Shown: in pieces, positions 32,264-58,449 of the stretch
How positions within the stretch are numbered: position 1 is the stretch's first letter
Layout: each line of letters starts with the position of its first letter
DNA from: Acidimicrobiia bacterium
Lineage (GTDB): Bacteria; Actinomycetota; Acidimicrobiia; IMCC26256; JAGPDB01
Direction of reading: 5' to 3'
Length of the DNA: 64,000 nucleotides
Assembly: GCA_018057765.1 (NCBI GenBank)
Contig: JAGPDB010000009.1
Location: 126 to 64,125 of the forward strand
Position numbers and translations under genes: made by a program
The notes under the pieces: model-generated
What the model was told of the DNA's origin: nothing
Seen by the model: the letters and a program-made list of their open reading frames with translations, nothing else
Databases searched by the model: none

Positions 32264-32566
32264 ATGACACAAATTACTAAAGAAGAGGTTGTCCATGTGG
32301 CAAATTTGGCGCGATTGAGTTTGACTGATGAAGAAATTGAGAAATTTGGAAAGCAGATGAGCGCAATTTTGGAACATGCCAGTGAAGTGAGCAAGATAGA
32401 TACTCAAGGTGTTGTGCCAACTTCACATCCGCTAAAGATGGAAAATGTATTACGCGAAGACGTAGTTGGACTATCCCTAACTCAAGAACAAGCTTTAAGT
32501 GGCGCACCTAATGCACAAGAAGGTCGATTTATGGTTCCTCAAATTTTAGATGCAGAAGAGAATTAA
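32264..32566 (+). CDS. gatC: Asp/Glu-tRNA amidotransferase subunit C
   Basis: ~100-aa protein starting ...EEVVHVANLARLSLTDEEIEKF..., directly upstream of gatA. Confidence 0.9.
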   Translation: MTQITKEEVVHVANLARLSLTDEEIEKFGKQMSAILEHASEVSKIDTQGVVPTSHPLKMENVLREDVVGLSLTQEQALSGAPNAQEGRFMVPQILDAEEN

Positions 32567-32567
32567 T

Positions 32568-34043
32568 ATGGTCAATTATTTTAATTTAACAGCAAGTGAA
32601 AAAATAGAAGAATTCAAAACAAATGATATAACTGCAATTCAAATAGTTGAACATGCTTTAGACGCTATAGAAAAAACAGAATCACAACTAGATGCTTTCT
32701 TAACAGTAATGACCAATGAGGCTAAAGCGCAGGCATTAGATATTGATTCGCGTAAAGCAACTGGTGAAAGACTCGGCGCATTGGCTGGAACTGTCATTGC
32801 TATCAAAGACAATATGGCAAGCCTTGACATTAAAACTACCTGTGGTTCAAAAATTTTGGAAAACTGGATTTCTCCTTATGATGCGAGCGTTGTTACAAAA
32901 TTGAAAAATGCGGATGCAATTATTATTGGTAAAACAAATATGGATGAATTCGCTATGGGTTCTTCAACAGAAAACTCCGCATTCAAAATTACAAAGAACC
33001 CTCATGATACTTCGCGCGTTCCCGGCGGTTCATCTGGTGGATCAGCTGCGGTAGTCGCAGCTGGAGTTGTCGATTTCTCATTGGGTTCAGATACCGGTGG
33101 CTCCATACGTCAACCTGCATCATTTACTGGTTTAGTTGGGGTCAAGCCAACCTATGGTCGAGTATCTCGCTATGGTCTGGTTGCCTTTGGCTCTTCACTT
33201 GACCAGATAGGACCATTTGCTCGTAACGTGAGTGATGCTGCATTATTGCTAGATGTTATAAGTGGTTATGATGATCGTGATTCAACATCAATCCAACAAA
33301 ACTATGATGCGCTAGTTGATAAAGTTAAAGATTCTAAAGGTATTTCTGGTTTAAGGGTAGGAATTATTTCTGAACTTGCAGGCCCAGAAGGTTTTCAAAA
33401 AGAAGTTCTTGATGCTTTTAATAAAACTGTACGAGAATTAGAAAACCAGGGCGCAAAAGTAGATAGTGTTTCTATCCCATCGGCAGCTTTCGGTATTAGT
33501 GCTTATTATATAATTGCTCCTGCTGAAGCTTCATCTAATTTAGCTCGTTTTGATGGTATGCGTTATGGATTGCGTGTTGAAGAATCGACATCAGCAAAAA
33601 CAAATGAAGCAACTCGTGAAGAAGGATTTGGCGAAGAAGTAAAACGTCGCATCATGTTAGGTACTTATGCTTTAAGTGCTGGTTATTATGATGCTTTTTA
33701 CGCGCAAGCACAAAAAGTTCGCACTGTTATGATGGCTGAATTCGCAAAAGCTTATGAGAACTTTGATGTGCTGTTATGTCCTACTACACCAACAACAGCA
33801 TTTAGCGTTGGTGCTAATGATGATGATCCAATGCAAATGTATCTGAATGATCTTTGTACAATTCCAACTAATTTAGTTGGTGCTTGTGCTATAAGTGTAC
33901 CGGTCGGGGTTGACGAAAACTCTTTGCCAATAGGTATCCAAGTATGTGCTCCGCCACTGGATGAAGAAGTTATTTTTGATGTTGCGAAAGCTATCGAGAG
34001 AACTTCTAATTACTCAACAAAACCACAAGTGTATGCATCTTGA
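32568..34043 (+). CDS. gatA: Asp/Glu-tRNA amidotransferase subunit A
   Basis: Amidase signature GGSSGGSAAVVAAG and GSDTGGSIRQPA. The ATG at 32568 lies 1 nt after the gatC stop; the ORF-track start at 32550 would overlap gatC. Confidence 0.93.
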   Translation: MVNYFNLTASEKIEEFKTNDITAIQIVEHALDAIEKTESQLDAFLTVMTNEAKAQALDIDSRKATGERLGALAGTVIAIKDNMASLDIKTTCGSKILENWISPYDASVVTKLKNADAIIIGKTNMDEFAMGSSTENSAFKITKNPHDTSRVPGGSSGGSAAVVAAGVVDFSLGSDTGGSIRQPASFTGLVGVKPTYGRVSRYGLVAFGSSLDQIGPFARNVSDAALLLDVISGYDDRDSTSIQQNYDALVDKVKDSKGISGLRVGIISELAGPEGFQKEVLDAFNKTVRELENQGAKVDSVSIPSAAFGISAYYIIAPAEASSNLARFDGMRYGLRVEESTSAKTNEATREEGFGEEVKRRIMLGTYALSAGYYDAFYAQAQKVRTVMMAEFAKAYENFDVLLCPTTPTTAFSVGANDDDPMQMYLNDLCTIPTNLVGACAISVPVGVDENSLPIGIQVCAPPLDEEVIFDVAKAIERTSNYSTKPQVYAS

Positions 34044-34081
34044 ACTAATTTCTAAAATATAAACTATACCGAGGAGAAATC

Positions 34082-34516
34082 GTGTCGGATGAAAAAGTAA
34101 TAGATAAAGAAAATTTAGAAACTGAACAAAAAGAAAATAGTCCAATTCAAAATGGCAAACAAAAAAAGAAAAAACGGTTTATTGCTGCTGTAATAATAAT
34201 TGTTATTTTGTCATTGGGCGCGTTGTCGATATATTTATTGGACCCGGTCGCAAAAGTTGGATCTACTGTTTCAAAAGTAAAAGCACAAGCAAAAAAAGCA
34301 AGTGGTATCGACGAAATGCTCGATATGGAATATTATTTTAAGAGCGATGGATCTTTAGATAAAGCAAAAGTCGCTGATGTGCAATCAAAGGTGCCCCCAT
34401 TATTTAAAAACAAGATGCTAGAGGGTATGAAGAAAAGGATAGCCCTAGCAATAGAGAAAAAAGATATAACACGAAGACAAGGTGATGAACTAAGTAGTGC
34501 CCTCGGTATTGGCTGA
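34082..34516 (+). CDS. Hypothetical membrane-anchored protein
   Basis: GTG-start ORF with a Lys-rich N-terminus, a single TM helix (FIAAVIIIVILSLGALSIYLL) and a charged C-terminal part; no motif. Confidence 0.45.
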   Translation: MSDEKVIDKENLETEQKENSPIQNGKQKKKKRFIAAVIIIVILSLGALSIYLLDPVAKVGSTVSKVKAQAKKASGIDEMLDMEYYFKSDGSLDKAKVADVQSKVPPLFKNKMLEGMKKRIALAIEKKDITRRQGDELSSALGIG

Positions 34517-35045: not shown

Positions 35046-35075
35046 CCTTTTTCATAAACTTAAGCATCAAGTCGG

Positions 35076-35208
35076 TTAAACTCTAACTATGACAACAATT
35101 AAATAAAAAGCTATGAATGTCGCAACCGCTCACCTCGAAACTGGCTATGAAGCTGTTATAGGCTTGGAAGTTCACTGTGAGCTTTCTAACAACACAAAAC
35201 TTTTTTGT
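35076..35208 (+). pseudogene. gatB: Decayed remnant of the gatB 5' end (left copy of direct repeat)
   Basis: It aligns colinearly with 46992-47124, the start of intact gatB, and translates as ...ATAHLETGYEAVIGLEVHCELSNNTKLFC. The first ATG (35089) runs into TAA after 5 codons, and similarity ends abruptly at 35208. Confidence 0.8.
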
Positions 35209-35235
35209 AAAGTACCAAAAGTAAACGCTTTAATA

Positions 35236-36561
35236 TTAAAGATATTCTACGTTTTCGCCTATGAGGCAGTGACATATATCGAATACTTGATTCGAATATT
35301 CTGTTATAAGTTGACCATCTATGCAATCATGATTTACTAGTACTACCACTAGGTCAGCAGATTGAATTTGAGATTCATTTAGCTCAACCCAATTATAATC
35401 TGGATTACGATATCTCTTATCAACAAGTGGGTCATGAACATTTACATTTGCTCCTGTATCTACTAATAGCTTTGTTACCTCTTCGGCGGGTGATTCGCGA
35501 TTATCACCACAGTTTGCCTTGTATGAATTACCTATAACTAAAATATCAGAATCACTGATACAGAGCTCTTGCTTTTTTAAAGATTTTGTTATTCTGCCAA
35601 CAACGTGTGGGGGCATCTCTTTGTTTATCTCACTTGCAAGATTAGCAAATCTAAAATTGTGACCATTTTGCTCGATTGCCCAAGAAAGGTAATGAGGATC
35701 AATAGGTAAACAATGTCCACCTGCGCCTGCGCCTGGTTTAAAAGGCATGAAGCCGTAAGGTTTTGTTGAAGCGGCTTCGATGGCTTCCCAAATGTCAATA
35801 TCTAATGAGTTAGCATACATTGCTAATTCATTAATTAAACTTATATTTACATATCTAAAAGTATTTTCTAACAGTTTAGAGAACTCTGCTACTTTTGGAT
35901 TTGAAACAGGTACAGTGGTATCAATAATTGTTTCCCAAAATTTTTGTGCTTCCTTCAATGATAGATTACCTACCCCACCTATAACTTTTGGCGTGTTAAC
36001 TATATCCCATAATTTGTTAACAGGGTCTATTCTTTCTGAGCTAAAAGCTAAATGGAAATCTACTCCTGATGTTAAACCTGAAGTCTCTAAGATTGGTGCG
36101 ACTACACTTTCAACTGTGCCAGGGTATGATGTTGATTCTAGAATGACTAATGATCCTGTAGTTAGATATTTAGATATTAAATTTGATGCATCTTCTATAA
36201 AGCTAACATTAGGTTTTCCGTCTTTAAGAGGTGTAGGTACGGTTATAACTGCAACATCGAAATTTATACAATCTTGCTCGTCTTTGCTAGGAGTAAATAG
36301 CCCTGTCTTTAGAGCTGCTTTAATCTGTCCATTCGATATATCGTCTATATATGATTGTCCCGATCTTAACGACGAAACCCTTTTCTCATCAATGTCGAAA
36401 CCTACAACATTGTAACCTGCCTCAATTGCACGAATAGTAAGTGGCAAACCAACATAGCCTTGCCCAACAATAAGTAGCTTTGGAGATTTAGACTTTAGAT
36501 TTGGACCGCATGATCCAGCTAAATCTTGATAATGGTTAGATTTAATTTTTTGATTTGTCAA
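35236..36561 (-). CDS. Nucleotide-sugar 6-dehydrogenase (UDP-glucose/GDP-mannose dehydrogenase family)
   Basis: N-terminal Rossmann motif LLIVGQGYVGLPL and catalytic Cys motif GAGGHCLPIDPHYL; typical length (441 aa). Confidence 0.85.
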   Translation of the reverse strand: MTNQKIKSNHYQDLAGSCGPNLKSKSPKLLIVGQGYVGLPLTIRAIEAGYNVVGFDIDEKRVSSLRSGQSYIDDISNGQIKAALKTGLFTPSKDEQDCINFDVAVITVPTPLKDGKPNVSFIEDASNLISKYLTTGSLVILESTSYPGTVESVVAPILETSGLTSGVDFHLAFSSERIDPVNKLWDIVNTPKVIGGVGNLSLKEAQKFWETIIDTTVPVSNPKVAEFSKLLENTFRYVNISLINELAMYANSLDIDIWEAIEAASTKPYGFMPFKPGAGAGGHCLPIDPHYLSWAIEQNGHNFRFANLASEINKEMPPHVVGRITKSLKKQELCISDSDILVIGNSYKANCGDNRESPAEEVTKLLVDTGANVNVHDPLVDKRYRNPDYNWVELNESQIQSADLVVVLVNHDCIDGQLITEYSNQVFDICHCLIGENVEYL

Positions 36562-36732
36562 CCGAATTCCTTTAAATGGCTATTTAGTACCATTTTAGTC
36601 ATATATCCGTCTATTGGCAAATGTTATATTAAATTATGAGCAAAAATATGAATTTCTAGTGTATATCTGCTTAATCTCTTCTAGAGTGCCTTATAATAAA
36701 AGATCTAATAGTATCGGTTCAGGATTATAAAT

Positions 36733-37725
36733 ATGAAAATGAAACAAACACTTATTATTGGAGCAGGTCATGCAGGTCAAAACCTACACTTGAAAACCTT
36801 AAAGAAACTAGAAATTAACACTTTGGTTGGGTTCGTTGATAATAATATAATAAAAAGTATACCCGGCATAAATAGAAAAAATATTTTCAAGAATTTGTCT
36901 AGTGTTGATGGATTTCCTGCTGATTCAACAGTGGTGCACATTTGTACTCCACCACAATCTCATAAAAAAATTATAGAAGAATTACTTCAGATGGGCTATA
37001 TGAATATCATTATTGAAAAGCCGATGTCAAACAATTACAAAGATGCAATTGATATTAATACTTTGATAATAGATTCGAATTCACAAGGAACAATTTTCGT
37101 CGTGGCAAATTGGTTGTACAGTAAAGTGATCTGGCATCTGAGAGACAAATTGAGTGACACAAAACTTGCTGTGTCCACAGTTAAGATGCAACAATCAAAA
37201 CCACGTTTCGAAAAGACCACATCAAATACTTACAAAGAGTCAATTTTTGACATTGAGATGCCTCACCTTGTAGTTCTTGCAATGTATCTTTTTGGTAAAG
37301 ATCTAAAATATAATATTTCTAAATGCGGAGATATGGTATATGAAAGTATTACATATAAAAACATGGGGTGGGCTACTTTAGAAATGGTATCAAGAGAAGG
37401 TTTTATAATAAATCTTGAAACATCATTAGTGTCTAAAAAAAGATCCAGAAAATTGGAGATTACTCTCGAAGACAAAAGTAAAATGATGTGTACTTTTCCC
37501 AGTGGGGGAGATGACAATTTTATATCTGAATTTCAATCTTGGACACCAAATGGTGAATTAATAGATTCAATCACATTCCAAGATGAGACATTATCAACAT
37601 TTATTTCAATGGCGTATGGAGCATTTAATGAAGAGGGAGCGGCGTTGATCAGCAATGGTGAACTAAACTTAGAAGTATGCAAAATGTTAGAAAAGGCAAA
37701 ATCGAATTCTATACATTGTCCGTAA
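36733..37725 (+). CDS. Gfo/Idh/MocA-family oxidoreductase
   Basis: N-terminal LIIGAGHAGQNLH dinucleotide-binding motif and the family-typical EKP motif (IIIEKPMSNN). Confidence 0.7.
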   Translation: MKMKQTLIIGAGHAGQNLHLKTLKKLEINTLVGFVDNNIIKSIPGINRKNIFKNLSSVDGFPADSTVVHICTPPQSHKKIIEELLQMGYMNIIIEKPMSNNYKDAIDINTLIIDSNSQGTIFVVANWLYSKVIWHLRDKLSDTKLAVSTVKMQQSKPRFEKTTSNTYKESIFDIEMPHLVVLAMYLFGKDLKYNISKCGDMVYESITYKNMGWATLEMVSREGFIINLETSLVSKKRSRKLEITLEDKSKMMCTFPSGGDDNFISEFQSWTPNGELIDSITFQDETLSTFISMAYGAFNEEGAALISNGELNLEVCKMLEKAKSNSIHCP

Positions 37726-37757
37726 GTAGCTGGGTCTACTCATTGAGTGAATAAAAT

Positions 37758-39035
37758 ATGAAAAATAAAGATTACATCATCGAAAACATCGATATTAACT
37801 TTAAAAAAGTTGTATTCCTTAAACCATTAAACTTAAGTAAAGGAAAGATTACTGAACTTAGCGAAGCAACCGTAACTGTGAACATAGTTGATCAAAATGG
37901 TTCTCAAGCTAGTGGTATAGGTTCAGTACTGCTTTCCTATCCCTGGGCCTGGCCCGATACCGAGTTAACTAACGAAGCTTGTGACGATACTTTGCGGATG
38001 GTTCTAAAAAAGATAATTGAATTTATAGACTGCAATAATAGATTTTTAAATCCTTTAGAAATGGGAATTGCTATTGATGAGCAGCTAGATGATATATTAT
38101 CTTCATTCGAACTTAATATTCCTAGATTAGCTGGGGCTATATGTGTTGCTCCTTTAGATGCTGCAATTCATGATGCTTGGGGAAAGTTACATGGTAAATC
38201 TGTATACAAAATGTATACGAAAGAATATCTTTATAAAGATCTTTCTGCTTATATAGGAAATATTGGTAATGGGATTTATCCGAGTGACTTATTTCTTGAA
38301 CAGCAGAATAAAAGTTCACTTATTCAACATGTCGTAGATATAGGTGCAGATTTAGATGAGCTATATTCCTCGATTACTAAAGAGAATATTAGATCTTTGA
38401 AAATTAAATGCTCGGGTTCGGATCCTTTAAGTGATGCTAGGCAGATACAAGAAATATATAAAATAGCAAAGAGCGCTGTACAAGATGGTTCTTTGTGTCT
38501 TTCATTAGATCCTAACGAAAGTTATACAGATATAGAATCCCTTATAGAGCTAATTGATAGATTAAATATAGATTCACCTGAGATTTATGATTCTATCCAA
38601 TATATTGAGCAACCTTTTTTACGAACTGTGAGGTTTGAAAAAGACCAATTACAAGTTATATCTGAAAGGATACCGTTGATAGCCGATGAAGGTTATACGC
38701 ATGTATCTGATCTTCCAGAATTGATGAATGAAGGTTGGTCTGGTATTGCTTTGAAGACGGCAAAGGGCATGACTCAATCTTTGTTGTCATATTCGTTTGC
38801 AAAAATTAGTAATAAATTTATCACATTACAAGATTTAACAAATGTCAATGATTCATTGCTTCAATCAGCATCGCTTGCATCACATCTATATCTCTCGACA
38901 CAAAATATCGAATGTAATTCAAGGCAATATTTACCAAATGAAAAATATTTTGTAGAAAATATTTTGCCTGATTTTATTCATACTTCAGACGGAACTATTC
39001 GTTTTGATAAATTGGAAAATGTAGGTATATATTGA
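37758..39035 (+). CDS. Enolase-superfamily enzyme, MLE subgroup (racemase/epimerase-type active site)
   Basis: Ordered barrel motifs: KxK (LKIKCSG), metal ligands DPNES, IEQP and ADEG, and a second catalytic Lys (IALKTAKG). This is the pattern of dipeptide epimerases and N-acylamino-acid racemases. Confidence 0.75.
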   Translation: MKNKDYIIENIDINFKKVVFLKPLNLSKGKITELSEATVTVNIVDQNGSQASGIGSVLLSYPWAWPDTELTNEACDDTLRMVLKKIIEFIDCNNRFLNPLEMGIAIDEQLDDILSSFELNIPRLAGAICVAPLDAAIHDAWGKLHGKSVYKMYTKEYLYKDLSAYIGNIGNGIYPSDLFLEQQNKSSLIQHVVDIGADLDELYSSITKENIRSLKIKCSGSDPLSDARQIQEIYKIAKSAVQDGSLCLSLDPNESYTDIESLIELIDRLNIDSPEIYDSIQYIEQPFLRTVRFEKDQLQVISERIPLIADEGYTHVSDLPELMNEGWSGIALKTAKGMTQSLLSYSFAKISNKFITLQDLTNVNDSLLQSASLASHLYLSTQNIECNSRQYLPNEKYFVENILPDFIHTSDGTIRFDKLENVGIY

Positions 39036-40024
39036 TGACGGATAAAATGGTATTTCCTCGAAAGTTAAAAGAAGGTTCTCAAGTAAGGGTAATTGCCCCA
39101 TCAAGTCCATTTAATCAAGTTGATCTTTCACAAAGAAAGACTATCGAGCGCGTATTAAAAGAATTAGGGCTTACTCTAACTTATGGTAAATATGTAGATT
39201 CTCAAAACAGCGAATGTTTAGTGGACCCAATACTCAGAGCCTCTGATTTGCATGAAGCATTTTTAGATCCAGATGTAGATTGCATTTTGGCGGCCATTGG
39301 CGGCTACAACTCGAAGGATTTATTGCCATATATTAAATGGGAGGTAGTCTCACAAAATCCAAAAATATTTTGTGGATTTTCTGACATAACTTTACTGCAA
39401 AATGTGTTTACACAAAAATTAGATATTGTTACTTATTCTGGTCCAATGTTATCAACATTCGGCATGGAACATCATAATGATCAAACTATAGATTGGTTTA
39501 AACAGTGTCTTTTTGATGAGTCTCCATATACTCTTTCAGCTTCAGAAACTTATTCAGATGATGAGTGGTGGTCGGATCAAGAAGATAGAAAATTATTGCC
39601 GTCTTCTTGGTGGGTAATAAATTCTGGAGAAAGTATTATGGGCAAAATCATTGGTGGAAATCTAACCACATTAAACTTACTTTTGGGAACTGATTATTTT
39701 CCAGAATTAGATGATACAATTGTATTTGTCGAAGATGATTACGAGTCTACATTAGATATTTTCATTCGAGATATAACCTCGTTAACGCAACATAGTAATT
39801 TCAGCGGAGTTAAAGCATTGATCATAGGTAGATTTCAGAATTCTAGCAATGTCGATCGTGATGATATAGCGAGCATGGTAAAGAGTAATCAAGTATTAGA
39901 TTCTATACCAGTTTTAGCTAATGTAGATTTTGGGCACACTTATCCTATGTTCACTTTTCCTATTGGGGGTATTGCCTCAATATCTTTTGATGATAACCCA
40001 AAAATAGTTATAGTGAAACATTAA
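39032..40024 (+). CDS. S66 serine peptidase (LD-carboxypeptidase LdcA / microcin-C immunity MccF family)
   Basis: Family motifs RVIAPSSP and AIGGYNS. Catalytic Ser is in GFSDITLL, Glu in VEDDYES and His in DFGHTYP. The start overlaps the upstream gene by 4 nt (ATGA). Confidence 0.85.
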   Translation: MMTDKMVFPRKLKEGSQVRVIAPSSPFNQVDLSQRKTIERVLKELGLTLTYGKYVDSQNSECLVDPILRASDLHEAFLDPDVDCILAAIGGYNSKDLLPYIKWEVVSQNPKIFCGFSDITLLQNVFTQKLDIVTYSGPMLSTFGMEHHNDQTIDWFKQCLFDESPYTLSASETYSDDEWWSDQEDRKLLPSSWWVINSGESIMGKIIGGNLTTLNLLLGTDYFPELDDTIVFVEDDYESTLDIFIRDITSLTQHSNFSGVKALIIGRFQNSSNVDRDDIASMVKSNQVLDSIPVLANVDFGHTYPMFTFPIGGIASISFDDNPKIVIVKH

Positions 40025-41432
40025 TCTTTTTTAGATCATCTAACCATGGTCGATAAAACTCTATGCTACTGCACAACTGAAATAAACTCGGTTCGTCTCC
40101 ATGTCTTGCAATGGCTTGTAAACCAATGGGCAACCCTGAGTTCGAAAATCCACATGGTATATTTGCAGCTGGATGACCGCTCAGGTTGAAAAGCCACGTA
40201 AAAATCATCCAGTCAACAGAATTATGTCTATTGATATATTGATCAGGAACAATTGAATGGGGTTTAATAGCTGCGATAGGCGAAGTCGGAGTGATGAGAA
40301 AATCGTAGTCAAACAACATATCTTCGACTTTGCTATAAGATTCTATACGGAGGTCATTAGCAGTCTTCAAGATATCAGATGTTATTTCTTTTCCTTTGTT
40401 AATCCAATATTTTCTACCCTCATCAATTAGGTCCCACTTTCTAATATTTTTTTCTTGTTCATGTAGGCCTGCATGAGCGTGACTGAATATCACATTAAAT
40501 GCTTCTTGAAATTTTAGATCTAGTTTTGGTTCGACAATTTCGACCTCATGACCATCTTTTGTAAGCGACATGATGGCAGCATCAATTCGATCTTTAACTT
40601 CTGGCTCAGCGGTACCAAAACCTAGATCACTACAATATGCAATCTTGTATTTTGTCTTTTTGCTTCTAGGAATAGACAGCGAATCACTAATTTTCAAATA
40701 CGTATGTGTATCTCCAGTGTTATAACCTGACATAGCATCTAACATTATGGAACTATCTCTAACGCTTCTAGTCATTGGGCCAGCTGATACTATATATTTG
40801 AGTGATGGATGTACTGCAACGTTAGGTATTCTTCCAAAGGTTGGCTTTAGTCCAAATATTCCAGACATAGAAGATGGAATTCTGATTGAACCTGCTGCAT
40901 CGCTACCATGAGCTATAGTACACATTCCTAATGCAATTGCAGTTGCAGCGCCTCCACTAGAACCACCTGATGAATACCTAGTGTCAAATGGGTTTAGTGA
41001 AGAAGGCATAATTCTGTTACTCGTGTCGCCTTTATAGCCGTATTCGCTTGTATTCGTTTTTCCTAAAAAAATAGCACCAAGGTTTATTAACCTTTTGACG
41101 AATTCTGCACTATTTTTAGCTATATCATTTTTATGGAGTAATGAACCACGAGTAAATAATTCATTTTCTACTGGTGTGAGATCCTTTACCGAAAAAGAGA
41201 TTCCACATAATATATTTTTTTCACCAGCCTGTATCTGTAATTCAGCCTTTTTTGCATCTTCGAGCGCACGTTCATGTGAAACACTTATATAAGCGTTGTA
41301 GATCGGGTTTAAAAGGTCAATGCGATCAAGCAACGTTTTAGTGACATCTACTGGGGAAAGAATTTTGGACTGGTATGCTTTTGACAATTCATCTATCGAT
41401 GCATACGCAATCCAATCTTCGTTTATAGACAT
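40008..41432 (-). CDS. Amidase-signature family amidohydrolase
   Basis: SFSVKDL (Lys), GGSSGGAATAIALG and GSDAAGSIRIPSSMSG (Ser-cisSer). It is a paralogue type of GatA but stand-alone. Confidence 0.85.
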   Translation of the reverse strand: MSINEDWIAYASIDELSKAYQSKILSPVDVTKTLLDRIDLLNPIYNAYISVSHERALEDAKKAELQIQAGEKNILCGISFSVKDLTPVENELFTRGSLLHKNDIAKNSAEFVKRLINLGAIFLGKTNTSEYGYKGDTSNRIMPSSLNPFDTRYSSGGSSGGAATAIALGMCTIAHGSDAAGSIRIPSSMSGIFGLKPTFGRIPNVAVHPSLKYIVSAGPMTRSVRDSSIMLDAMSGYNTGDTHTYLKISDSLSIPRSKKTKYKIAYCSDLGFGTAEPEVKDRIDAAIMSLTKDGHEVEIVEPKLDLKFQEAFNVIFSHAHAGLHEQEKNIRKWDLIDEGRKYWINKGKEITSDILKTANDLRIESYSKVEDMLFDYDFLITPTSPIAAIKPHSIVPDQYINRHNSVDWMIFTWLFNLSGHPAANIPCGFSNSGLPIGLQAIARHGDEPSLFQLCSSIEFYRPWLDDLKKINVSL

Positions 41433-42467
41433 TTATATGTCACCTAGTGTAAGGGGTTGGCGTAGATTTTGACTTAGTTGTTGCTCATTGCCAAAGAGTA
41501 TATATGTACCACCTGTATGTAGTAAAATCACATTGGAATCTTTTACGATCTTTCCTTCTTCAATAAGTTGATTTAGCCCAAGCATAGCTTTACCCATGTA
41601 AACAGGATCAATGAGTAATCCATGGTTGCGACCAGCATCAACTACAGCTTGTACTACCTGATCATCATACTGATTATAACCTCCACATACAGCTCCATCA
41701 TGAGTTTCGAAATGTGATTGACTCCTTACAGTAGAGGGAATGTCGGCATATTTTTCTAGATCATCAAGAATAGCCAGATACTTTGATTCGAAAAAAGAAT
41801 TATCTTCTAAAACACAAATGCCTGTTAAATTCCATGGTCGATTTAACATGGTCGTCCCTGCTAATAATCCAGTATGCATGCCTCCTGATCCGGTAGGAAA
41901 AACTATGTGGTCAAAGTTTGTACCGATTTCAGCTTCTTGAGCGGCTAATTCTTTAGCCATGTCAATATACCCTAAGCTACCACGCCAATCTGATGAACCT
42001 GGTGGTAATAAGTATGGTTTTTTGCCTTCTACTTTAAGTCTTTCTACTAATTCATCTAGATGATGTTCAATGTTTGTCCACTCGCTACCTGGTAGTTTTT
42101 TGACTTTAGCTCCCATTAGCAAATCTATTAAGTAGTTTCCATTTGCTTCAGGCATAGGTTCAAAATCGCATACTATAAGTTCACATTTGATTCCAAGCCT
42201 ACGAGCATATATAGCTACTGCTTTGCATTGGTTCGAATTTGATCCGCCGGCTGTAACAACTGTGTCAGAATTCGTATTTATAACATCAGCTAATACATAT
42301 TCTAGTTTTCTTACTTTATTACCAGACGAATATGCATCTAGCTCAGACTCATATTTTATCCAAATATTTACCCCTAATTCATCAGATAGGGTATCATTTC
42401 TTTCCAAGCGTGTAGGCGCATGCGACAGAGAAAGGCGCCCAATACCATTATAAGACTGGTGCATCAT
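41433..42467 (-). CDS. PLP-dependent enzyme of the ACC deaminase / D-cysteine desulfhydrase family
   Basis: Family-defining PLP-lysine motif SSGNKVRKLEYVL. N-terminal ...APTRLER...LGVNIWIKYES and C-terminal LHTGG. Confidence 0.8.
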   Translation of the reverse strand: MMHQSYNGIGRLSLSHAPTRLERNDTLSDELGVNIWIKYESELDAYSSGNKVRKLEYVLADVINTNSDTVVTAGGSNSNQCKAVAIYARRLGIKCELIVCDFEPMPEANGNYLIDLLMGAKVKKLPGSEWTNIEHHLDELVERLKVEGKKPYLLPPGSSDWRGSLGYIDMAKELAAQEAEIGTNFDHIVFPTGSGGMHTGLLAGTTMLNRPWNLTGICVLEDNSFFESKYLAILDDLEKYADIPSTVRSQSHFETHDGAVCGGYNQYDDQVVQAVVDAGRNHGLLIDPVYMGKAMLGLNQLIEEGKIVKDSNVILLHTGGTYILFGNEQQLSQNLRQPLTLGDI

Positions 42468-43800
42468 TTGTCCAACTTCTTAAGTATTCGAAAAAATTAA
42501 GCTCTCCTACAGCAGCACTTAAAGGTAACTCTTGAAAATGAATAGATAATTCTTCGAGCTTTACTCCAGGTTTACATTCAGATACGAGTTCTATTGGCGG
42601 TCTTTCTAGCTCTAAGACTCCTGCAATCCATCCGGATCGCGTCTTTAATGTCATATCATCTAGTGCTTGGCTAGCATCATGTGCAATCATAGGAAGATAC
42701 TCATTTTGACTTGGACCCCCCAACACTTTTACGCCTGGCAATATAGATATGGCTAAAAATCCAAGAGTTAGATTTGGCATTATCTCACCATCTCTTAATG
42801 CCTTGCTTATACATTCTCTGTTAAATGGTATAGGCGCTTCTCCACGACCAAGTTCTATCAACTCATTGTTTATTAACTTTAATGGTCTGAGTCTTCCTTC
42901 TCGAATACGCCAAAAATGGTCTGTAGTATTTGGTAACGCCTTCGCATTAGCATCTGTGTGAGAGTCTTGCAGCTTCATCCATCTGCTACGGGTATCTTCA
43001 TCGAACAATAGGGTGCAAAGTTCATGTGAGTTAGTTTCTATATGTAGTGCGATTAATTCCGCCACTAATCTATCATCTGTATAGACCGGCAGCACTTCGT
43101 TATCTGTATCCCATTTTCTTGAAATTGCAGTATTTGCTGTGATAAAAGCATCTGCTGGTGAAGAAAATAGTCCTCCAAATTTACTTGATGTAAAGCTTTT
43201 TACTGTATCTTGAATTTCTTTAAATTCAGTACGGATTTTTTCAGAGAGAATGTTCTGAGCACCGTCCCACAGAAATTCAACTGCTCTTGCAGTTGACCCA
43301 ACCATCATTTTCGACATTTTATTTGAACTAATTCCAAATATACTTATTTTTTGACCATCGATATCTAAGTAACCAGGCCCAACACCTGAACGAGTTTTCA
43401 TCGTAACCGTGCTTGAAGCATTGACGAAAGTAAATCTTTGGCCAGTTCCTTTAGCTCCGATTCGTGATATGAGATTTGTAGAGAAGGTCGCGGGGTCAAG
43501 TATTAGCTGTAAGTGATCAGCTGTCTGCATCACAGGAGTCTCTCGAAACTGTTCCATTGCAACTTTTGCAGCTTTATCACCATATTGGAAAATAGCCCAT
43601 TTTTCCATAACCGTTATGAACATTTCTCTTGCATCGATTTCTCTAGATGTTGGTTCATGCCCATCATTTTCATAAAGAGATACAGCGTATTGTCCGAGAG
43701 TCATTTCTGGATTGTCGATCAAAAAATCGGCAGTGGTAGGCGATACTTCTGCCAATGCCTGTAGTCTTTTGCTCGCGTCACTACCTTCTTCATACTGCAT
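42448..43800 (-). CDS. Hypothetical protein (450 aa), no recognisable domain
   Basis: Long intact ORF with normal amino-acid composition. It overlaps the downstream PLP-enzyme gene by 20 nt and lies 13 nt after the upstream ORF, so it is in an operon. Confidence 0.6.
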   Translation of the reverse strand: MQYEEGSDASKRLQALAEVSPTTADFLIDNPEMTLGQYAVSLYENDGHEPTSREIDAREMFITVMEKWAIFQYGDKAAKVAMEQFRETPVMQTADHLQLILDPATFSTNLISRIGAKGTGQRFTFVNASSTVTMKTRSGVGPGYLDIDGQKISIFGISSNKMSKMMVGSTARAVEFLWDGAQNILSEKIRTEFKEIQDTVKSFTSSKFGGLFSSPADAFITANTAISRKWDTDNEVLPVYTDDRLVAELIALHIETNSHELCTLLFDEDTRSRWMKLQDSHTDANAKALPNTTDHFWRIREGRLRPLKLINNELIELGRGEAPIPFNRECISKALRDGEIMPNLTLGFLAISILPGVKVLGGPSQNEYLPMIAHDASQALDDMTLKTRSGWIAGVLELERPPIELVSECKPGVKLEELSIHFQELPLSAAVGELNFFEYLRSWTNDAPVL

Positions 43801-43813
43801 GTTGTACTTATTC

Positions 43814-45031
43814 CTATATCGACTTTAACCATTGGTTAAGTGTGTTGTAATGTCCTTGTGAAAATATACTTTCTTTTGAATTTAATGGCTTTTCAAATGC
43901 AGAAAAAAATGTATTTTCTATTTCATCGAATGGAATGTCTATTAGATCTGAATTTTCTCCATAATAACCGGTGAGTGTTGCTTTTGTATATGCCTCTAGA
44001 TTTTCCTTTATAGCTTTGCTTGCTTCTTCATATCTTTTAGCGCCTGGTATCACGATGTCTGCAGGTGTCAATGCAGATGATAAATTTGCAAATGTTTCAG
44101 CTATGAACTGGTCTACATTTAGTGTTTGCTCTATGGTTAATGCTCGACGATCACCTAGATCATGCATAAAAGTATTTCCTGTTCTTGTCAGTGACATATT
44201 CCCAAAATGACGGAATGGTGCTACCAGGCCACTTTTATGCATAGTGCTCATCGCGTTTGCACGTCTGGTCAATACTTGTTTCATTGGCGAAAAATTTTTG
44301 TTGGAACTTAGCTCTGTTAATGCTTCATAGTAAGGAGTATCTCTACCTGGAATCAATTCAGGTAGTCCTAAAACGACATATCCGAATTGATCACCGTCAA
44401 ATGAGCCATTTTCAAATTCACCCCAAGCAATTGCAAGCGGTACTTCGACATTTGTGCCTTCCATTCTTTTTGAGGCTTCTCTGCAAAATATGAATTCATT
44501 AACAGCTTCGCACATAGTGCAATATCCAGATGCTTCTTGCGGAAGCTGAAACCCTCGTAGGTAAGAGTCCTTGTCTGCGAAATAGTATTCAGATCTCCAA
44601 CCCACACCGCCATAACTTTTTGGTGGTACAGCTTCATCAAATACAACACCTTTTACTTGTAAAGAAACTACGGGGTTTATCGCTTTGCCGTCAAGTATAT
44701 CTATTGGTTTTTCTAAATCGAACCAGACTGATCGTGTCTCGTAGTCGGGTATACGGTTTTTACCAATTATTTCTTTTAATTTTGATTTGTCATTGGAGCT
44801 GATTTCGATTTCTTCATTTAAATAAAAGGTCGATTTTCTATCTGTGTCTAAACTCTCGTAAAGTGTGTTTACCTTAGCTTCAGCCGTTGCAGTATCTAAA
44901 TGCCAGTTCGCATGTACTGCTGGATGGAAGGAGGGGCCTCCAAAGTTGGGCATCATTCGGTCATTTATTCTTTTCATGCCAGATTGCCCTTTTTTTCGTA
45001 TATAGCTTGTTATCTCCTTAAATATTGCCAC
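43814..45031 (-). CDS. Hypothetical protein (405 aa), no recognisable domain
   Basis: Long intact ORF, first gene of the minus-strand operon. It contains a CxxC...C patch (GYCTMCEAVNEFIFC) and RHFGN...HDLGD, neither of which matches a family I can name. Confidence 0.6.
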   Translation of the reverse strand: MAIFKEITSYIRKKGQSGMKRINDRMMPNFGGPSFHPAVHANWHLDTATAEAKVNTLYESLDTDRKSTFYLNEEIEISSNDKSKLKEIIGKNRIPDYETRSVWFDLEKPIDILDGKAINPVVSLQVKGVVFDEAVPPKSYGGVGWRSEYYFADKDSYLRGFQLPQEASGYCTMCEAVNEFIFCREASKRMEGTNVEVPLAIAWGEFENGSFDGDQFGYVVLGLPELIPGRDTPYYEALTELSSNKNFSPMKQVLTRRANAMSTMHKSGLVAPFRHFGNMSLTRTGNTFMHDLGDRRALTIEQTLNVDQFIAETFANLSSALTPADIVIPGAKRYEEASKAIKENLEAYTKATLTGYYGENSDLIDIPFDEIENTFFSAFEKPLNSKESIFSQGHYNTLNQWLKSI

Positions 45032-45263
45032 AAAGTGTTGGTATTTGCAAACCAGTATTCAAAATAACCTTAAATTAATTAATATAATTCCTGGTATTCC
45101 GCAATTTGATCGGGAGTCTTGCATTAAATCTATTTTTTAGCTAAATTACTCTAATTGTTGTCAGTTATGTCCGTTAAACGTGGAATCTACAATATTACTA
45201 CTATTCTACATCAATCGTACTATTGTGATAGAATTGAAAAATGACAAAACGGATGTTAAATGT

Positions 45264-46937
45264 ATGAGTGGTAAAGTTTCCTGGCTTGAAGATATCGCAG
45301 ATCGTACCATTTCAAACATTAACCCTCAAGGAAAGACAATTATTTGTGCTTCGGGCATATCGCCCTCTGGTCACATTCATTTAGGCAATATGAGGGAATT
45401 AATGACCCCACATTTAGTGGCTGAAACAATAATCGCTAGAGGTCTTAATGCTGAACATGTTCTTTTTTGGGATGATTTTGATTCTCTGAGGAAAGTTCCT
45501 GCAGGACAACCAGATTGGCTTCATGAGCATATCGGCAGACCCTTAACTTCAATACCTGACCCTAATGGTCAATATGTATCTTATGCAGATTCGTTTATTG
45601 CAGAGTTCGAAAGAGGCATAAAAGATTTACAAATTCCGATCAGGGTAATCAGGCAATCCGAAGAATACCTGAATGGATCCTATTCTGAATTAGTACGACT
45701 TGCAATGGCTGAACGAGAAAAAATATCAAGAATTATAGATGAGAGTAAGACTGGTTTTAAACAAAAAGCTGACGCACCTTTACAACCTGAAGGAGAATAT
45801 TTCCCATTTAAACCTTATTGTGAAATCGATGATTATGCAAGCGATATAACTAGTTACAATGATGACACTTCTGAAATGACCTATTGCTGCCCAAATTGTA
45901 ACCATAATGGTACTATGTCGCTCTATGATACACCATTAAGAGGCAAACTATCATGGAAAGTAGACTGGCCGATGAGATGGTCTAAGTATGGTATCGATTT
46001 CGAACCCGGAGGAATGGATCATGCAACACCAGGTAGTAGCTTTTCTGTAGGCAAACGTCTAGTAGCCGAAATATTTGGAGGTACTCCTCCAGAGTTTGTT
46101 GGGTATTCTTTTGTCGGAAGAAAAGGTTATTCTTCTAAAATGTCAAGTTCACGTGGCGATGGGATAACACCAGATACAATTTTAAATTATATAGAGCCGG
46201 CAATGCTCCGTTGGATGTATGCCAAAAGAAGTCCGAGTAGCTCATTCGAAATTGATCTGTCAGCTGGCGGAATTCGAGGTGAATATGATAGGTGGGATGC
46301 AGCTAATAGAAAAAGCGTAAGTAATTCGGGCGCAGACGATGGTGCTATAGATTTATCTGTTAAAACTTCAGCCGGAGATGTTCCTTACTCGATACCTGCT
46401 TTACGGTTTTCTGCACTTGCTTCAACTCTAGATATGGTACATGGTGATGTTGATCGAGCATTATCAATAATTTTGCAATCTCTAAAACCTGATACAGAGA
46501 TAAAAGATATCGATTCGATAGCTATAAGAATCGATAGGGCGTTGAGATTTATTGAAGAGATTTTGCCGGCAAGTGAGAGAATTGTGGTTCAGGATGAGTT
46601 TGACCACGATTATTACGAAGGGATTTCTGAAGTTAATAGAGTCGGTTTAGCATTACTTGTTTCTGGAATTGATGAGCATAGAAATACTGTAGCTGAGCTG
46701 GAATTATTTATTTATTCAATACCAAGACTAATAAATGAGATTCCTATGGATGCTCCTAAATCAGATGAACTAAAAGTTGCTCAATCAGCATTCTTTAAAG
46801 ATGTATACCAGCTTATATTAGGTAAAGATCGAGGACCAAGACTCTCTACGTTGTTAAGTACATTAGATACAAATAAGTTGGAGTCGCTTGTTAGCTGTCC
46901 TGTAACTATATCTCCTATTTCTGCTCAGCATTTATAG
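45264..46937 (+). CDS. lysK: Class I (archaeal-type) lysyl-tRNA synthetase
   Basis: N-terminal WLEDIADR...ASGISPSGHIHLGNMRE (HIGH-equivalent HxGN typical of class I LysRS), LFWDDFDSLRKVP, and KMSKS-equivalent SKMSSSRG. ATG at 45264 is preferred over the GTG at 45180. Confidence 0.85.
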   Translation: MSGKVSWLEDIADRTISNINPQGKTIICASGISPSGHIHLGNMRELMTPHLVAETIIARGLNAEHVLFWDDFDSLRKVPAGQPDWLHEHIGRPLTSIPDPNGQYVSYADSFIAEFERGIKDLQIPIRVIRQSEEYLNGSYSELVRLAMAEREKISRIIDESKTGFKQKADAPLQPEGEYFPFKPYCEIDDYASDITSYNDDTSEMTYCCPNCNHNGTMSLYDTPLRGKLSWKVDWPMRWSKYGIDFEPGGMDHATPGSSFSVGKRLVAEIFGGTPPEFVGYSFVGRKGYSSKMSSSRGDGITPDTILNYIEPAMLRWMYAKRSPSSSFEIDLSAGGIRGEYDRWDAANRKSVSNSGADDGAIDLSVKTSAGDVPYSIPALRFSALASTLDMVHGDVDRALSIILQSLKPDTEIKDIDSIAIRIDRALRFIEEILPASERIVVQDEFDHDYYEGISEVNRVGLALLVSGIDEHRNTVAELELFIYSIPRLINEIPMDAPKSDELKVAQSAFFKDVYQLILGKDRGPRLSTLLSTLDTNKLESLVSCPVTISPISAQHL

Positions 46938-46991
46938 ATAGTTAAATATCTGGTTCCAGTCTATCTTTCATCTTTATCGCTACTTTGTCGT

Positions 46992-47124
46992 TTAAACTAT
47001 AGCCATGACAACAACACAACAAAAAGCAATGAACCAAGCTACTGCACACCTCGAAACTGGTTATGAAGCTGTTATAGGCTTAGAGGTCCACGTAGAGCTC
47101 GCAACAAACACAAAGCTTTTTTGT
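46992..47124 (+). repeat. Right copy of the gatB-5' direct repeat (functional copy)
   Basis: See 35076-35208. The shared core CACCTCGAAACTGG(c/t)TATGAAGCTGTTATAGGCTT is at 47047-47081 and 35131-35165. Confidence 0.8.
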
Positions 47125-48519
47125 TCATGTGCAAATAATTTTGGTTCTGAACCTAACACTAATACTTGTCCTGTTTGTTTGGCCTTACCTGGCGCGTTGC
47201 CGGTATTAAACGAAAAGGTTGTTGAATATGCATTGCGTATTGGTGAAGCTCTTGAATTCAATGTTCCTACACGCTCTATCTTTCATCGTAAAAACTATTT
47301 TTATCCCGATATGCCTAAAAACTTTCAGACTTCACAATACGACGAACCAATATGTATGGACGGTAAGTTAGATATTGTTACTTCGCTTGGTGAAAAAACT
47401 ATTCGTATAGAGCGCGCACACATGGAAGAGGATACTGGTAAGTCATCTCATATTGGCGAATCAGGTCGTATCCATGGTGCTGATTATTCTTTGGTTGATT
47501 ATAATCGTGCTGGTGTTCCTTTGATGGAAATCGTTTCGCGACCCGACATTTCAAATTCAGAAGAAGCTCGTGCTTATGTTTCTGAATTGCGTGCTGTTTT
47601 AAAAACTATTGGTGTTAGTGACGTGAAAATGGAAGAGGGCTCAATGCGAGTTGATGCCAATGTTTCTGTTCGGCCTATTGGTCAAGAAGAATTGGGTACC
47701 CGTGCTGAAATAAAAAATATGAATTCATTGCGTTCACTTGGTCGTGCTGTTGATTATGAAATTATGCGCCAAATCGAACGTGTTAAAAGCGGAGAAAAGA
47801 TTGTTCAAGAAACGCGTCATTGGAATGAGAATGATGGCGAGACTTCATCTATGCGTTCTAAAGAAGAAGCTAATGACTATCGTTATTTCCCAGAACCAGA
47901 TTTAGTTCCAGTTGTTCCAACAGCTGAAATGAGGAAATCTGTACACGATTCTATGCCTGAACTACCAAATGCGAAACGTGAAAGAATAGTAAACGAATGG
48001 TCAATATCGCAAGCTGATGCTCGTACTTTGATATCTAATGTTGAAATGTTTGACCTTGTTGATGGTGCTATAAAAATTGGTGGTGTTTCTATTGCTAAAG
48101 ATGCAACTAATTTTGTGATCATAGAAATTGCTTCGATTCTTAATGAGAGTGGCGAAGAATTAGATAGTCTAAAAATTACTTCTACGAATCTTTCTGATGT
48201 TTGTACAATGATTTCTAATGGCGATATTTCTCGTAATCAGGCAAAGACTTTGATTTCTAAACTTGCTAGTGATGGTGGGGATGCAAAAGTATTGGCAGAT
48301 GTATTAGGTTTGAAACAAGTAAGCGATACAGGTGCACTTGAATCAATTATAGATAGCGTTTTCGCAGAGTTTTCTGATGATGTTGCAAGTTATGCTGATG
48401 CTGATGAAGTAAAGCAAAAGAAATTGCAGGGTTTCTTAATGGGTAAAGCTATGGCTGCTTCTAAAGGTCAGGGTAATCCTCAACTCTTCAATAAAATCAT
48501 TTCTGAAAAACTTAAATAG
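47005..48519 (+). CDS. gatB: Asp/Glu-tRNA amidotransferase subunit B
   Basis: N-terminal YEAVIGLEVHVEL, CPVCLALPGALPVLN and RAHMEEDTGKS, with a C-terminal GatB/YqeY domain. Full length (504 aa). Confidence 0.95.
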   Translation: MTTTQQKAMNQATAHLETGYEAVIGLEVHVELATNTKLFCSCANNFGSEPNTNTCPVCLALPGALPVLNEKVVEYALRIGEALEFNVPTRSIFHRKNYFYPDMPKNFQTSQYDEPICMDGKLDIVTSLGEKTIRIERAHMEEDTGKSSHIGESGRIHGADYSLVDYNRAGVPLMEIVSRPDISNSEEARAYVSELRAVLKTIGVSDVKMEEGSMRVDANVSVRPIGQEELGTRAEIKNMNSLRSLGRAVDYEIMRQIERVKSGEKIVQETRHWNENDGETSSMRSKEEANDYRYFPEPDLVPVVPTAEMRKSVHDSMPELPNAKRERIVNEWSISQADARTLISNVEMFDLVDGAIKIGGVSIAKDATNFVIIEIASILNESGEELDSLKITSTNLSDVCTMISNGDISRNQAKTLISKLASDGGDAKVLADVLGLKQVSDTGALESIIDSVFAEFSDDVASYADADEVKQKKLQGFLMGKAMAASKGQGNPQLFNKIISEKLK

Positions 48520-48534
48520 TTATAGTGGTTTGAG

Positions 48535-49119
48535 TTGCTATTTTACTTTTCCATAATTGGGTCAATAGGTTCTATAGCAATTCCAATGCCGCAAGCTAAA
48601 AAGGCATATTTTGATTCCACAAAAGGTGTATCTCTAAATACATATATAGGTTTATTTTCTATCGCTGTACTTTGGATACCTCACGGAATTTTTACTCGTC
48701 AACCATTACTAACTTATAGCAATGTTATCTCATTATTTTTTTCTTTGATTATCATTTATGCAATTTCACGAGACAATAACAACTACAAAATCATGCTTTA
48801 TGCTTTTGTAGCAATGTTTGGAAGTCTGTCAATTTATCTTTTAGGTTCATTGACTATAAGAGTTTCTATTTTGATGTTTTTGACATTGTTTTTGAGAATC
48901 CCTCAGATGTACAAAGCTCTTTTCGCAAAAAACATAGAAGGTATTTCAATTTTTACATGGATAATTGCAGGTTTTGGAAATTCAATGTGGTTAGGTGCTG
49001 GTATCATAAAAAAAGATTTGGGTTTAATCATACCAACATCATTTAATGTTGCGTTTTCCATCATAATCGTACTTGTAGTTCTCTTGCGACAAAAAAGTTT
49101 AACGGTGCTGGTAGAATAG
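48535..49119 (+). CDS. PQ-loop (SWEET/SemiSWEET-like) membrane protein with two PQ motifs
   Basis: About 7 hydrophobic helices. There is a PQ motif after helix 1 (IPMPQAKKAY) and another after helix 5 (LRIPQMYKALF). TTG start. Confidence 0.55.
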   Translation: MLFYFSIIGSIGSIAIPMPQAKKAYFDSTKGVSLNTYIGLFSIAVLWIPHGIFTRQPLLTYSNVISLFFSLIIIYAISRDNNNYKIMLYAFVAMFGSLSIYLLGSLTIRVSILMFLTLFLRIPQMYKALFAKNIEGISIFTWIIAGFGNSMWLGAGIIKKDLGLIIPTSFNVAFSIIIVLVVLLRQKSLTVLVE

Positions 49120-49123
49120 AGCT

Positions 49124-50994: not shown

Positions 50995-51102
50995 ATATAA
51001 ATTCTAGCTATAATCTTTTATATTATCGTCAATTGATAGCTTTTTTGCTTTTAATCTAACATTCTGGTATTGTATCGAAATCGATATTTAAAGGAGTAAA
51101 TT

Positions 51103-58434: not shown

Positions 58435-58449
58435 AAATGTATTCGTTCT

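Follow-up and report, generated by a model that had tools for sequence, protein, structure and literature searches.

A nine-gene insertion between gatA and gatB of an uncultured acidimicrobial actinobacterium, bounded by a gatB 5′ pseudogene with affinity to a sister lineage

The gatCAB locus described here lies in a 64-kb stretch (the window) of contig JAGPDB010000009.1, from an uncultured, low-GC (guanine plus cytosine; 36%) actinobacterium of the class Acidimicrobiia; the window is the only part of this genome that was examined. In it, gatC and gatA are separated from gatB by nine cargo genes, and the interval is bounded by a direct repeat of the gatB 5′ end, the left copy of which has decayed. 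Sister lineages of the window's species are called S1 and S2 (the latter comprising S2a and S2b). The genes of the operon, the repeat copies and the small open reading frames (ORFs) of the gap are as follows.

32264–32566, + strand: gatC (Pfam GatC, 2.4e-23), with TAGAAT-N7-ATG before its start, as at gatB
32550–34043, + strand: gatA (Pfam Amidase, 2.8e-153); the gene callers' start is at ~32568 (491 amino acids, aa)
34058–34071, + strand: ATATAAACTATACC, a candidate partial third promoter-like block just after the gatA stop
34082–34516, + strand: orf144, a small protein rich in Lys, with a single predicted hydrophobic helix
34569–35045, + strand: orf158, a small fast-evolving protein, distant homologue of S1 gap ORFs
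35071–35208, + strand: left repeat copy, a gatB 5′ pseudogene fragment from −18 to codon 40 (alignment, blastn), made up of a promoter-like block (35071–35088), the ATG (35089–35091), a TAA (35104–35106) and a homogenised patch (35131–35165)
35113–35340, + strand: spurious 75-codon ORF, gatB codons 9–40 followed by antisense read-through (GatB_N, 2e-5, residues 15–36)
46987–47124, + strand: right repeat copy, the functional gatB promoter-like block (TAAACT at −12 to −7) and codons 1–40
47005–48519, + strand: gatB, intact, 504 codons (GatB_N, 3.6e-119; GatB_Yqey, 1.6e-31)

The two copies align without gaps over 138 nucleotides (nt), with 109/138 positions identical (79%), and a blastn search of the left copy against the whole window returned the right copy at E = 2.8e-29 and a next best match at E = 0.13. 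The initial annotation had described a colinear repeat with a 35-nt stretch containing one mismatch and an abrupt end of similarity, and all of this was recovered: the repeat reaches 5 nt further left than had been given, the near-identical stretch lies at 35131–35165 and 47047–47081, and similarity stops after TTTTTTGT (35208 and 47124). Its reading of the right copy as the true start of an intact gatB, and of the left copy as decayed, also stands. The product of the right-hand gene is full length and carries both the GatB_N catalytic domain and the C-terminal GatB/YqeY domain of a GatB subunit; the assembly collection has an identical protein in 57 of its indexed blocks. The left copy reads ATG ACA ACA ATT AAA TAA, with a stop at codon 6 (translation, MTTIK*KAMNVATAHLETGYEAVIGLEVHCELSNNTKLFC). 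The ORF that overlaps it is spurious, as had been suspected, since it starts at the internal Met9 codon and runs on antisense to the 3′ end of the next gene. This 75-codon "GatB_N" ORF, called by gene callers in 1 of the 10 places shown, should be handled as a pseudogene in annotation. The pseudogene (gatB −18 to +120) ends 27 nt from the stop of the convergent first cargo gene, where a fragment of the anchor gene gatB abuts non-homologous DNA at a sharp junction, a feature of displacement scars. Sensitive blastn found no further gatA or gatB fragments.

Close relatives were found by exact-protein look-ups, and all are short metagenomic contigs. Their GatB homologues fall into tiers of 100% identity (the window's species), 86–88% aa (the sister lineages; 86% in S1) and 73–77% aa (family level). 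Comparison with the sister species and the family-level relatives establishes a genuine insertion of ~11.8 kb between gatA and gatB, as first proposed from the window. In S1, represented at 11 places in independent assemblies, the order is gatC-gatA-orf174-orf162-gatB, with no cargo; two of these assemblies also hold the window's species. Three family-level lineages have contiguous gatC-gatA-gatB with 2–15-nt spacers, and in most of the first 30 of 80 more distant Actinomycetota loci that were tabulated, gatA lies directly upstream of gatB or within ~1–2 kb. The flanks of up to 10 kb fetched around gatB at ~100 other loci contain none of the cargo genes, and the cargo is specific to the window's species as far as databases show. 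Among GTDB representative genomes, the gatB search was dominated by generic motifs (best identity among the matches listed, 61%), and a search with orf158 yielded no relative among 600 stretches, all of them false. A clade-specific degenerate DNA pattern, AHLETGYEAVIGLEVH, had 0 matches in genome contigs or metagenome contigs. Two candidate relatives, P0002 (an 83% orf158 homologue) and P0138, were rejected, both being the window's species with the same junction.

The initial annotation had also raised the concern of an assembly artefact. At least 21 independent conspecific contigs (ENA, NCBI, Logan) carry both junctions, and 21 align to the window at 99.6–99.97% identity with the same gene content, none showing within-species variation in content. 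The remnant, as we call the left copy, is 99–100% identical in 10 conspecific contigs, and the variant contigs L122 and L123 have the same junction. Co-occurring related genomes could in principle have been mis-joined at the conserved gatB 5′ sequence, and the window's species and S1 do occur together in at least two assemblies (ERZ22160067, ERZ27239170). However, both junctions recur in these 21 or more contigs, which come from different sources and samples; no functional gatB matches the remnant, with its codon-6 stop and its divergence of 11–13% from S1; and the left junction lacks a shared k-mer able to cause a mis-join. A chimeric assembly is thereby excluded for practical purposes, and the probability that we would still allow it is negligible. 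Divergence among conspecific contigs is as low in the cargo as in the flanks; a recent sweep, with lower population diversity in the cargo, was considered and rejected on the same observation.

The inserted genes form four units on alternating strands (one gene on the − strand, three on +, four on −, one on +), in agreement with the initial annotation.

35236–36561, − strand: cargo 1, nucleotide-sugar dehydrogenase (UDP-glucose/UDP-ManNAc dehydrogenase family)
36733–37725, + strand: cargo 2, Gfo/Idh/MocA-type oxidoreductase (Pfam GFO_IDH_MocA, 6e-12)
37758–39035, + strand: cargo 3, divergent enolase-superfamily protein (racemase/epimerase-like)
39032–40024, + strand: cargo 4, S66 LD-carboxypeptidase, LdcA/MccF family (Peptidase_S66, 2e-31; S66C, 1.9e-25)
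40008–41432, − strand: cargo 5, amidase-signature enzyme, a distant GatA paralogue (26–39% aa; Pfam Amidase, 1.7e-93)
41433–42467, − strand: cargo 6, pyridoxal phosphate (PLP) enzyme of the D-cysteine desulfhydrase/1-aminocyclopropane-1-carboxylate (ACC) deaminase/CuyA family
42448–43800, − strand: cargo 7 (unk450), 450-aa protein of a rare uncharacterised family
43814–45031, − strand: cargo 8 (unk405), family-less protein of 387–405 aa
45264–46937, + strand: cargo 9, lysK, class I lysyl-tRNA synthetase (LysRS) of an orphan lineage; the longest ORF starts at 45180

Cargo 1 has the N-terminal, central and C-terminal UDPG_MGDP_dh domains of Pfam and scores 374 bits against TIGR03026, above cutoff. 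Cargo 3 is more divergent, with an MR_MLE_C match of 7.9e-6 (below the Pfam cutoff), weak DgcA and mucon_cyclo matches and no sequence relative in PDB. For cargo 6, the PALP match is strong (1.4e-38), and those to TIGR01275 (231 bits) and CuyA (244 bits) are both below cutoff. The unk450 family has 261 representatives among 1.84 billion, with a best identity of 37–38%; the only GTDB locus with a homologue, in Pyrinomonadaceae (36% identity, GC 64%), lacks the other cargo genes. Neither unk450, profile searches of its family included, nor cargo 8 has a Pfam, NCBIfam or PDB match, and AlphaFold single-sequence models of the two were unusable (predicted local distance difference test, pLDDT, 33–35). 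Cargo 3 and cargo 4 overlap by 4 nt, the S66 peptidase and amidase genes converge with a 17-nt overlap (40008–40024), and the PALP gene and unk450 overlap by 20 nt; the cargo is packed as tightly as the core genome, with no recognisable terminators. In one conspecific contig (L098, 7601–8562, corresponding to window ~36733–37725) the Gfo/Idh/MocA gene is broken into two ORFs (100 and 220 aa), and one conspecific contig shows 3.3% local divergence in the 37–38-kb bin versus ≤0.2% in others. This could reflect either an error caused by low coverage or an allele, variant or decaying, that some of the population carries.

The lysK product contains the HIHLGN and KMSSS motifs and exceeds the curated equivalog cutoff for class I LysRS (TIGR00467, 306 bits versus 147.6; tRNA-synt_1f, 7e-94). 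Among 5.8 billion proteins nothing lies between 100% and 44% identity to it, and the named matches at 39–44% come from Streptomyces, Kitasatospora, Nocardia, Pseudonocardiaceae and Ktedonobacteria, among others. The gene ends 67 nt before the gatB start, and Rfam shows no riboswitch or T-box before it. No class II LysRS is present among the annotated ORFs of the window, where ~10 further ORFs of at least 200 aa are unannotated. That all nine cargo genes are non-core, as initially annotated, is plausible, with a possible exception in lysK, which might be the organism's only LysRS. The gene represents a very isolated lineage worth attention and may serve as a second enzyme, a replacement or a resistance determinant.

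The cargo is one of five unrelated contents found upstream of gatB in the genus, the others being orf162, an extracytoplasmic function (ECF) sigma/anti-sigma pair, an FtsX-like permease and a B3_4-domain gene. In S2a, gatA is followed by the anti-sigma/ECF-sigma pair on the opposite strand and then by gatB. In one S2b contig (L102) the permease gene ends ~40 nt before gatB, and in the other (L125), whose gatB is 96% nt identical to that of the first, a split B3_4-domain gene precedes it. One position between conserved core genes thus holds contents that differ among related genomes, which defines a hot spot. When L125 is compared with L102 and with S2a (L120), homology begins at −18 and −17 of the ATG, respectively, and the repeat inside the window likewise begins at −18. 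The shared sequence is GTCGTTTAAACTATAGCC abutting the ATG, with TAGAAT variants, conforming to TAnnnT at −12 to −7 from the start-codon A. Leaderless transcripts are abundant in Actinobacteria. Because of this and of the geometry of the block, we infer that the ~18-nt block is a compact promoter with a −10 box for a leaderless gatB mRNA; if so, anything could sit upstream of −18. Promoter and terminator consensus scans gave chance-level results and nothing at the block, since the scan requires a −35 hexamer, and further copies of the 18-nt block with up to 4 mismatches were also at chance level.

The fragment ATATAAACTATACC, which follows the gatA stop, matches the block before S1 gatB at 14/14 positions; on a base-composition estimate such a match is tentatively unlikely by chance. 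S1 has a similar block, TCGTTAAGCTATTCCCAATGAC, before orf174 (L101, 4038–4061). These may be copies of the promoter block that mark earlier insertions, or may reflect a shared leaderless-promoter consensus. The small ORFs of the gap are probably older than the cargo, because orf158, represented by only two clusters among 5.8 billion proteins, is distantly homologous to S1 orf174 (29% aa, E 7e-9) and orf162 (27% aa, E 2e-4). Its neighbour orf144 has no Pfam, PHROGs or PADLOC match and no similarity to S1 orf174. In L125 the B3_4-domain protein (a PheRS-beta-like tRNA-binding domain) is encoded by overlapping ORFs of 137 and 111 aa at 170–872 on the − strand, which indicates a pseudogene with a frameshift or else a fault in the assembly. 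Here too a tRNA-related gene neighbours gatB.

The window's species, S1 and S2 are approximately equidistant, with nt identities of 0.77–0.79 for gatB and 0.74–0.76 for gatA (GatA of S1 is 77% identical in aa over its full length; over 340 shared columns the values are 82% for S1 and 84% for S2a), and in the 138-nt region their functional gatB genes are 78–80% identical to each other. The remnant, however, is 87% identical to S1 gatB (120/138; 117/132, or 88.6%, by blastn) versus 79% to its own gatB. Given p = 0.80, the probability of at least 117/132 matches is 0.006. At 17 informative sites the remnant agrees with S1 and at 6 with its own gatB, and the pair of remnant and S1 receives 94.6% neighbor-joining bootstrap support (99.7% without the patch discussed below). 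The remnant also has the S1-only residues K5 and C30, together with the private changes T4I, Q6stop, A11V and T34N, which make up its decay. Left and right copies differ at 11 codons synonymously and at 7 non-synonymously. Because the differences are mostly synonymous, the two copies appear to be different alleles that diverged as working genes, and the remnant reads as an S1-type allele rather than the species' own old 5′ end. The scar as a whole points to recombination between species, with gatB as homology arm, rather than to a resident 5′ end that decayed in place. Duplication of the gatB 5′ end in situ was rejected, since remnant and own gatB group in 5% of bootstraps (0% without the patch), as was a recombination breakpoint within gatB, of which sliding identity shows none. 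Four of the six sites at which the remnant equals its own gatB are clustered at 35151–35163, are synonymous and differ from S1, S2a and S2b. They mark a patch, inside the 35-nt stretch, of gene conversion between the two window copies.

The affinity of the remnant bears on a history in which the island arrived within this lineage by homology-facilitated illegitimate recombination (HFIR). An incoming cargo-lysK-gatB segment would have been anchored in gatB and joined illegitimately at codon 40/41, the remnant being the native allele displaced upstream and the present gatB, or its 5′ part, the import. A single step of this kind explains both the abrupt end at 35208 and the survival of an essential gene, the copies differ mainly at synonymous sites as two functional alleles would, and the mechanism is documented, with displaced gene ends in type VI secretion system (T6SS) and Rhs arrays (PMC5361080). 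However, a native allele should be 74–80% identical in nt to S1, like gatA, gatC and the rest of gatB, and 87–89% is observed; no segment of gatB is bounded by a breakpoint or relates differently to S1 than to S2, and gatA gives the same three-way equidistance; three flanking genes already suggest that the window's species has no special closeness to S1. The S1 affinity argues against the native remnant that this model predicts, unless the event took place in an S1-related genome, and we regard one-step HFIR in the window's own lineage as unlikely.

The same affinity could be accounted for if the island and both repeats were ancestral and S1 lost the island by recombination between the repeats, its gatB 5′ end then deriving from the left copy. 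Remnant and S1 gatB 5′ end would be orthologous, which explains their grouping, and deletion between 138-nt direct repeats is mechanistically easy. Orthologues, one of them evolving neutrally, should nevertheless be ~79% identical or less, not 87–89%; the neighbourhoods of S1, S2 and the family-level relatives contain no trace of the cargo; and no database homologue of lysK exceeds 44%, despite the good sampling of S1. This loss scenario is very unlikely.

The composition of the cargo is that of its surroundings. The initial annotation had judged the interval to be more AT-rich by eye, which proved incorrect: GC is 0.364 in the cargo and 0.362 in the window (0.375 and 0.355 in the 12-kb flanks), the GC content of third codon positions is 0.23–0.29 versus 0.19–0.33 for the other window genes tabulated, and the tetranucleotide distance of the cargo is inside the window's range. 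It had further held that an interval without compositional deviation would speak against an insertion; no deviation was found, and the comparative evidence overrides this result. Its statement that the interval lacks integrase, transposase, tRNA and phage genes was confirmed with Pfam, NCBIfam, PHROGs, PADLOC, ARAGORN and Rfam, and the same scans of the gatA-gatB interval found no phage structural gene, defence gene or Rfam RNA. No tyrosine or serine recombinase lies between gatA and gatB by Pfam, NCBIfam and PHROGs (the NCBIfam scan leaving aside orf144 and the PHROGs scan lysK, all within the 64 kb), and the spacers are ≤190 nt. The features of an insertion sequence (IS)-bounded composite element are lacking as well, with no transposase and no bracketing inverted-repeat pair among the 25 longest listed; the duplication here is 138 nt long and diverged.

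These results weigh on site-specific integration, in which a lost or unlinked integrase would have inserted a circle carrying a gatB 5′ mimic, with the 35-nt near-identical stretch as crossover core and the left copy as the displaced resident end. Many islands target the end of an essential conserved gene, which is the situation here. Direct repeats do flank the cargo, the 35-nt one-mismatch stretch included, and junctions at about −18 are sharp in several lineages. Yet the island has no integrase, excisionase or relaxase, and spacers of at most 190 nt are too short to hide a decayed one. Under a single crossover in the core, the left 5′ and right 3′ parts should share one origin, and the left 3′ and right 5′ parts the other. 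This is not seen: the left copy is S1-like in both arms (42/47 and 35/37), the right copy in neither. A resident remnant would, moreover, be ~79% identical to S1, compared with the observed 88.6% (P = 0.006), and the other four contents occupy the same junction without a gatB fragment. Integrase-mediated insertion is accordingly improbable. Of the two options put forward in the initial annotation, recombination at a conserved flank agrees with the five contents that share the −18 junction, while replacement of the 5′ end of the attL/attR kind does not agree with an S1-like remnant.

Since the remnant is of S1 type, the most likely source of the cluster is an S1-related donor in which it was already joined to a gatB 5′ fragment. 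We consider it somewhat more probable than not that the island was gained by homologous recombination from such a donor with gatB as the arm. The history might have run as follows. In the wider family, gatC-gatA-gatB is one tight operon. In the genus, gatB would have become transcriptionally independent through the ~18-nt block abutting its ATG (TAAACT or TAGAAT at −12 to −7), leaving the sequence upstream of −18 free to vary and turning the gatA/gatB gap into a recombination hot spot. An S1-related lineage would then have acquired the junction of cargo and gatB 5′ fragment, possibly through HFIR, and the cluster would have moved into the window's lineage by host homologous recombination with the gatB 5′ end as arm, a resident integrase being unneeded. 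This transfer could have been a double crossover (remnant with gatB 5′ end on the left, donor gatB with gatB on the right) or the Campbell-type integration of a circle that the two repeats had generated. A patch no longer than 35 nt (35131–35165) would later have been homogenised by gene conversion, and the remnant decayed; the arrangement is now fixed in a highly uniform population.

Several points weigh against this history. The S1 affinity rests on 138 nt, with 23 informative sites, and the direction of exchange is not fixed by it: the gatB 5′ end of S1 could instead derive from some relative of the window's lineage. The cargo was found in no genome with an S1-type background and has no close relative anywhere, which leaves the donor hypothetical. 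Its composition, which does not deviate, fits an old or within-clade acquisition and lends no independent support to transfer; either the donor has yet to be sampled or the acquisition dates back far enough for amelioration to be complete. The island is invariant in the species and gives no evidence of recent movement. An integrase could have been lost, or be encoded outside the island. Finally, the promoter and its leaderless mRNA are read from a sequence pattern.

A broader reading, to which we give little credence, joins a portable arm to a functional unit. A gatB piece of ~140 nt, consisting of the leaderless promoter and the first ~41 codons, may carry integrase-less clusters between species, excision and integration then being performed wholly by host recombination between gatB copies. 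The orphan LysRS, MccF-like S66 peptidase, GatA-like amidase, PLP enzyme and two family-less proteins of the nine-gene cargo may act together and could handle a lysine or aminoacyl-adenylate antimetabolite, either in resistance or in production with self-resistance.

Other parts of the window also vary. A 1382-aa NHL-repeat protein is encoded at 23716–27864 (+) between ychF and a pknB-like kinase gene. The corresponding site has only small ORFs in S1 (L113) and in a family-level relative (L103), and the gene, ~7 kb upstream of gatC, looks to be a second insertion confined to this species. Downstream of gatB (48520–61280) the contents are likewise variable: a Fic-domain gene follows gatB in S1 and S2b, not here, and the distance from gatB to ilvD is ~12.7 kb here (with PQ-loop, beta-eliminating lyase, exonuclease III, arg and BioY genes) versus 1–5 kb in family-level relatives. 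At 1155–2930 (+) lies a 591-aa protein with an LplA/B-type lipoyl/octanoyl transferase domain, LIAS_N and Radical_SAM, an apparent lipB-lipA fusion. Two large CHASE-(PAS)-GGDEF-EAL proteins are encoded within 10 kb of sequence, at 3030–5435 (+) and 10108–13200 (−), in what looks like a small, streamlined genome; a PAS-GGDEF-EAL protein also occurs near gatB in the family-level relatives L103 and L108.

The event is of an ordinary kind, the gain of an island at a permissive hot spot, and is unusually well documented. It provides a clean natural example of gene clusters entering streamlined uncultured bacteria without obvious mobile-element machinery. An essential operon is opened, its last gene appears to gain its own promoter, and the gap becomes a genus-wide landing pad, while the gatB pseudogene may be regarded as a molecular fossil of DNA exchange with a co-occurring sister species.

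Among known systems, the flexible genomic islands of streamlined aquatic bacteria are similar in that contents vary between conserved genes and exchange is attributed to flank recombination. In 'Ca. Actinomarinales', cassettes use a conserved tRNA-gene target, 'tRNA-direct repeat' islands are mentioned, and glycotype islands have a GC of 28% versus 32.5% (PMC7771536). Here, by contrast, an essential protein-coding gene and not a tRNA is targeted, at its promoter and 5′ end; there is no drop in GC, and the cargo is not clearly a cell-envelope cluster. Variation is also confined to comparisons between species or near-species, the two S2b-type contigs (gatB 96%) differing completely upstream.

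HFIR scars offer a second parallel, including orphan modules in T6SS effector-immunity arrays and C-terminal displacement in Rhs and contact-dependent inhibition (CDI) systems (PMC5361080). As in those cases, an incoming module has shifted DNA next to which a fragment of the anchor gene remains, an integrase is lacking and the scar records the transfer. However, the arrangement is a mirror image, with a 5′ fragment upstream instead of 3′ fragments downstream; the anchor is a housekeeping gene and not a polymorphic toxin; there is a single scar and not an array; and the scar allele looks foreign, which one-step HFIR within the lineage does not predict.

Integrase-mediated islands with attL and attR resemble this one in that their cargo lies between direct repeats of the target end, with the target gene itself left intact. 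They differ from it in their integrase, excisionase or conjugation gene, tRNA and compositional signature, none of which is found here, and in their repeats, since that of gatB is long (138 nt), 21% diverged and a mosaic unlike the product of a single core crossover. As for the cargo, class I LysRS is patchily distributed in bacteria, and the enzyme encoded here resembles bacterial LysK in being a full-length class I LysRS with HIGH- and KMSKS-type motifs whose host has relatives without one. It stands apart from these in its extreme isolation (≤44% identity) and in its position, inside an island and 67 nt upstream of gatB.

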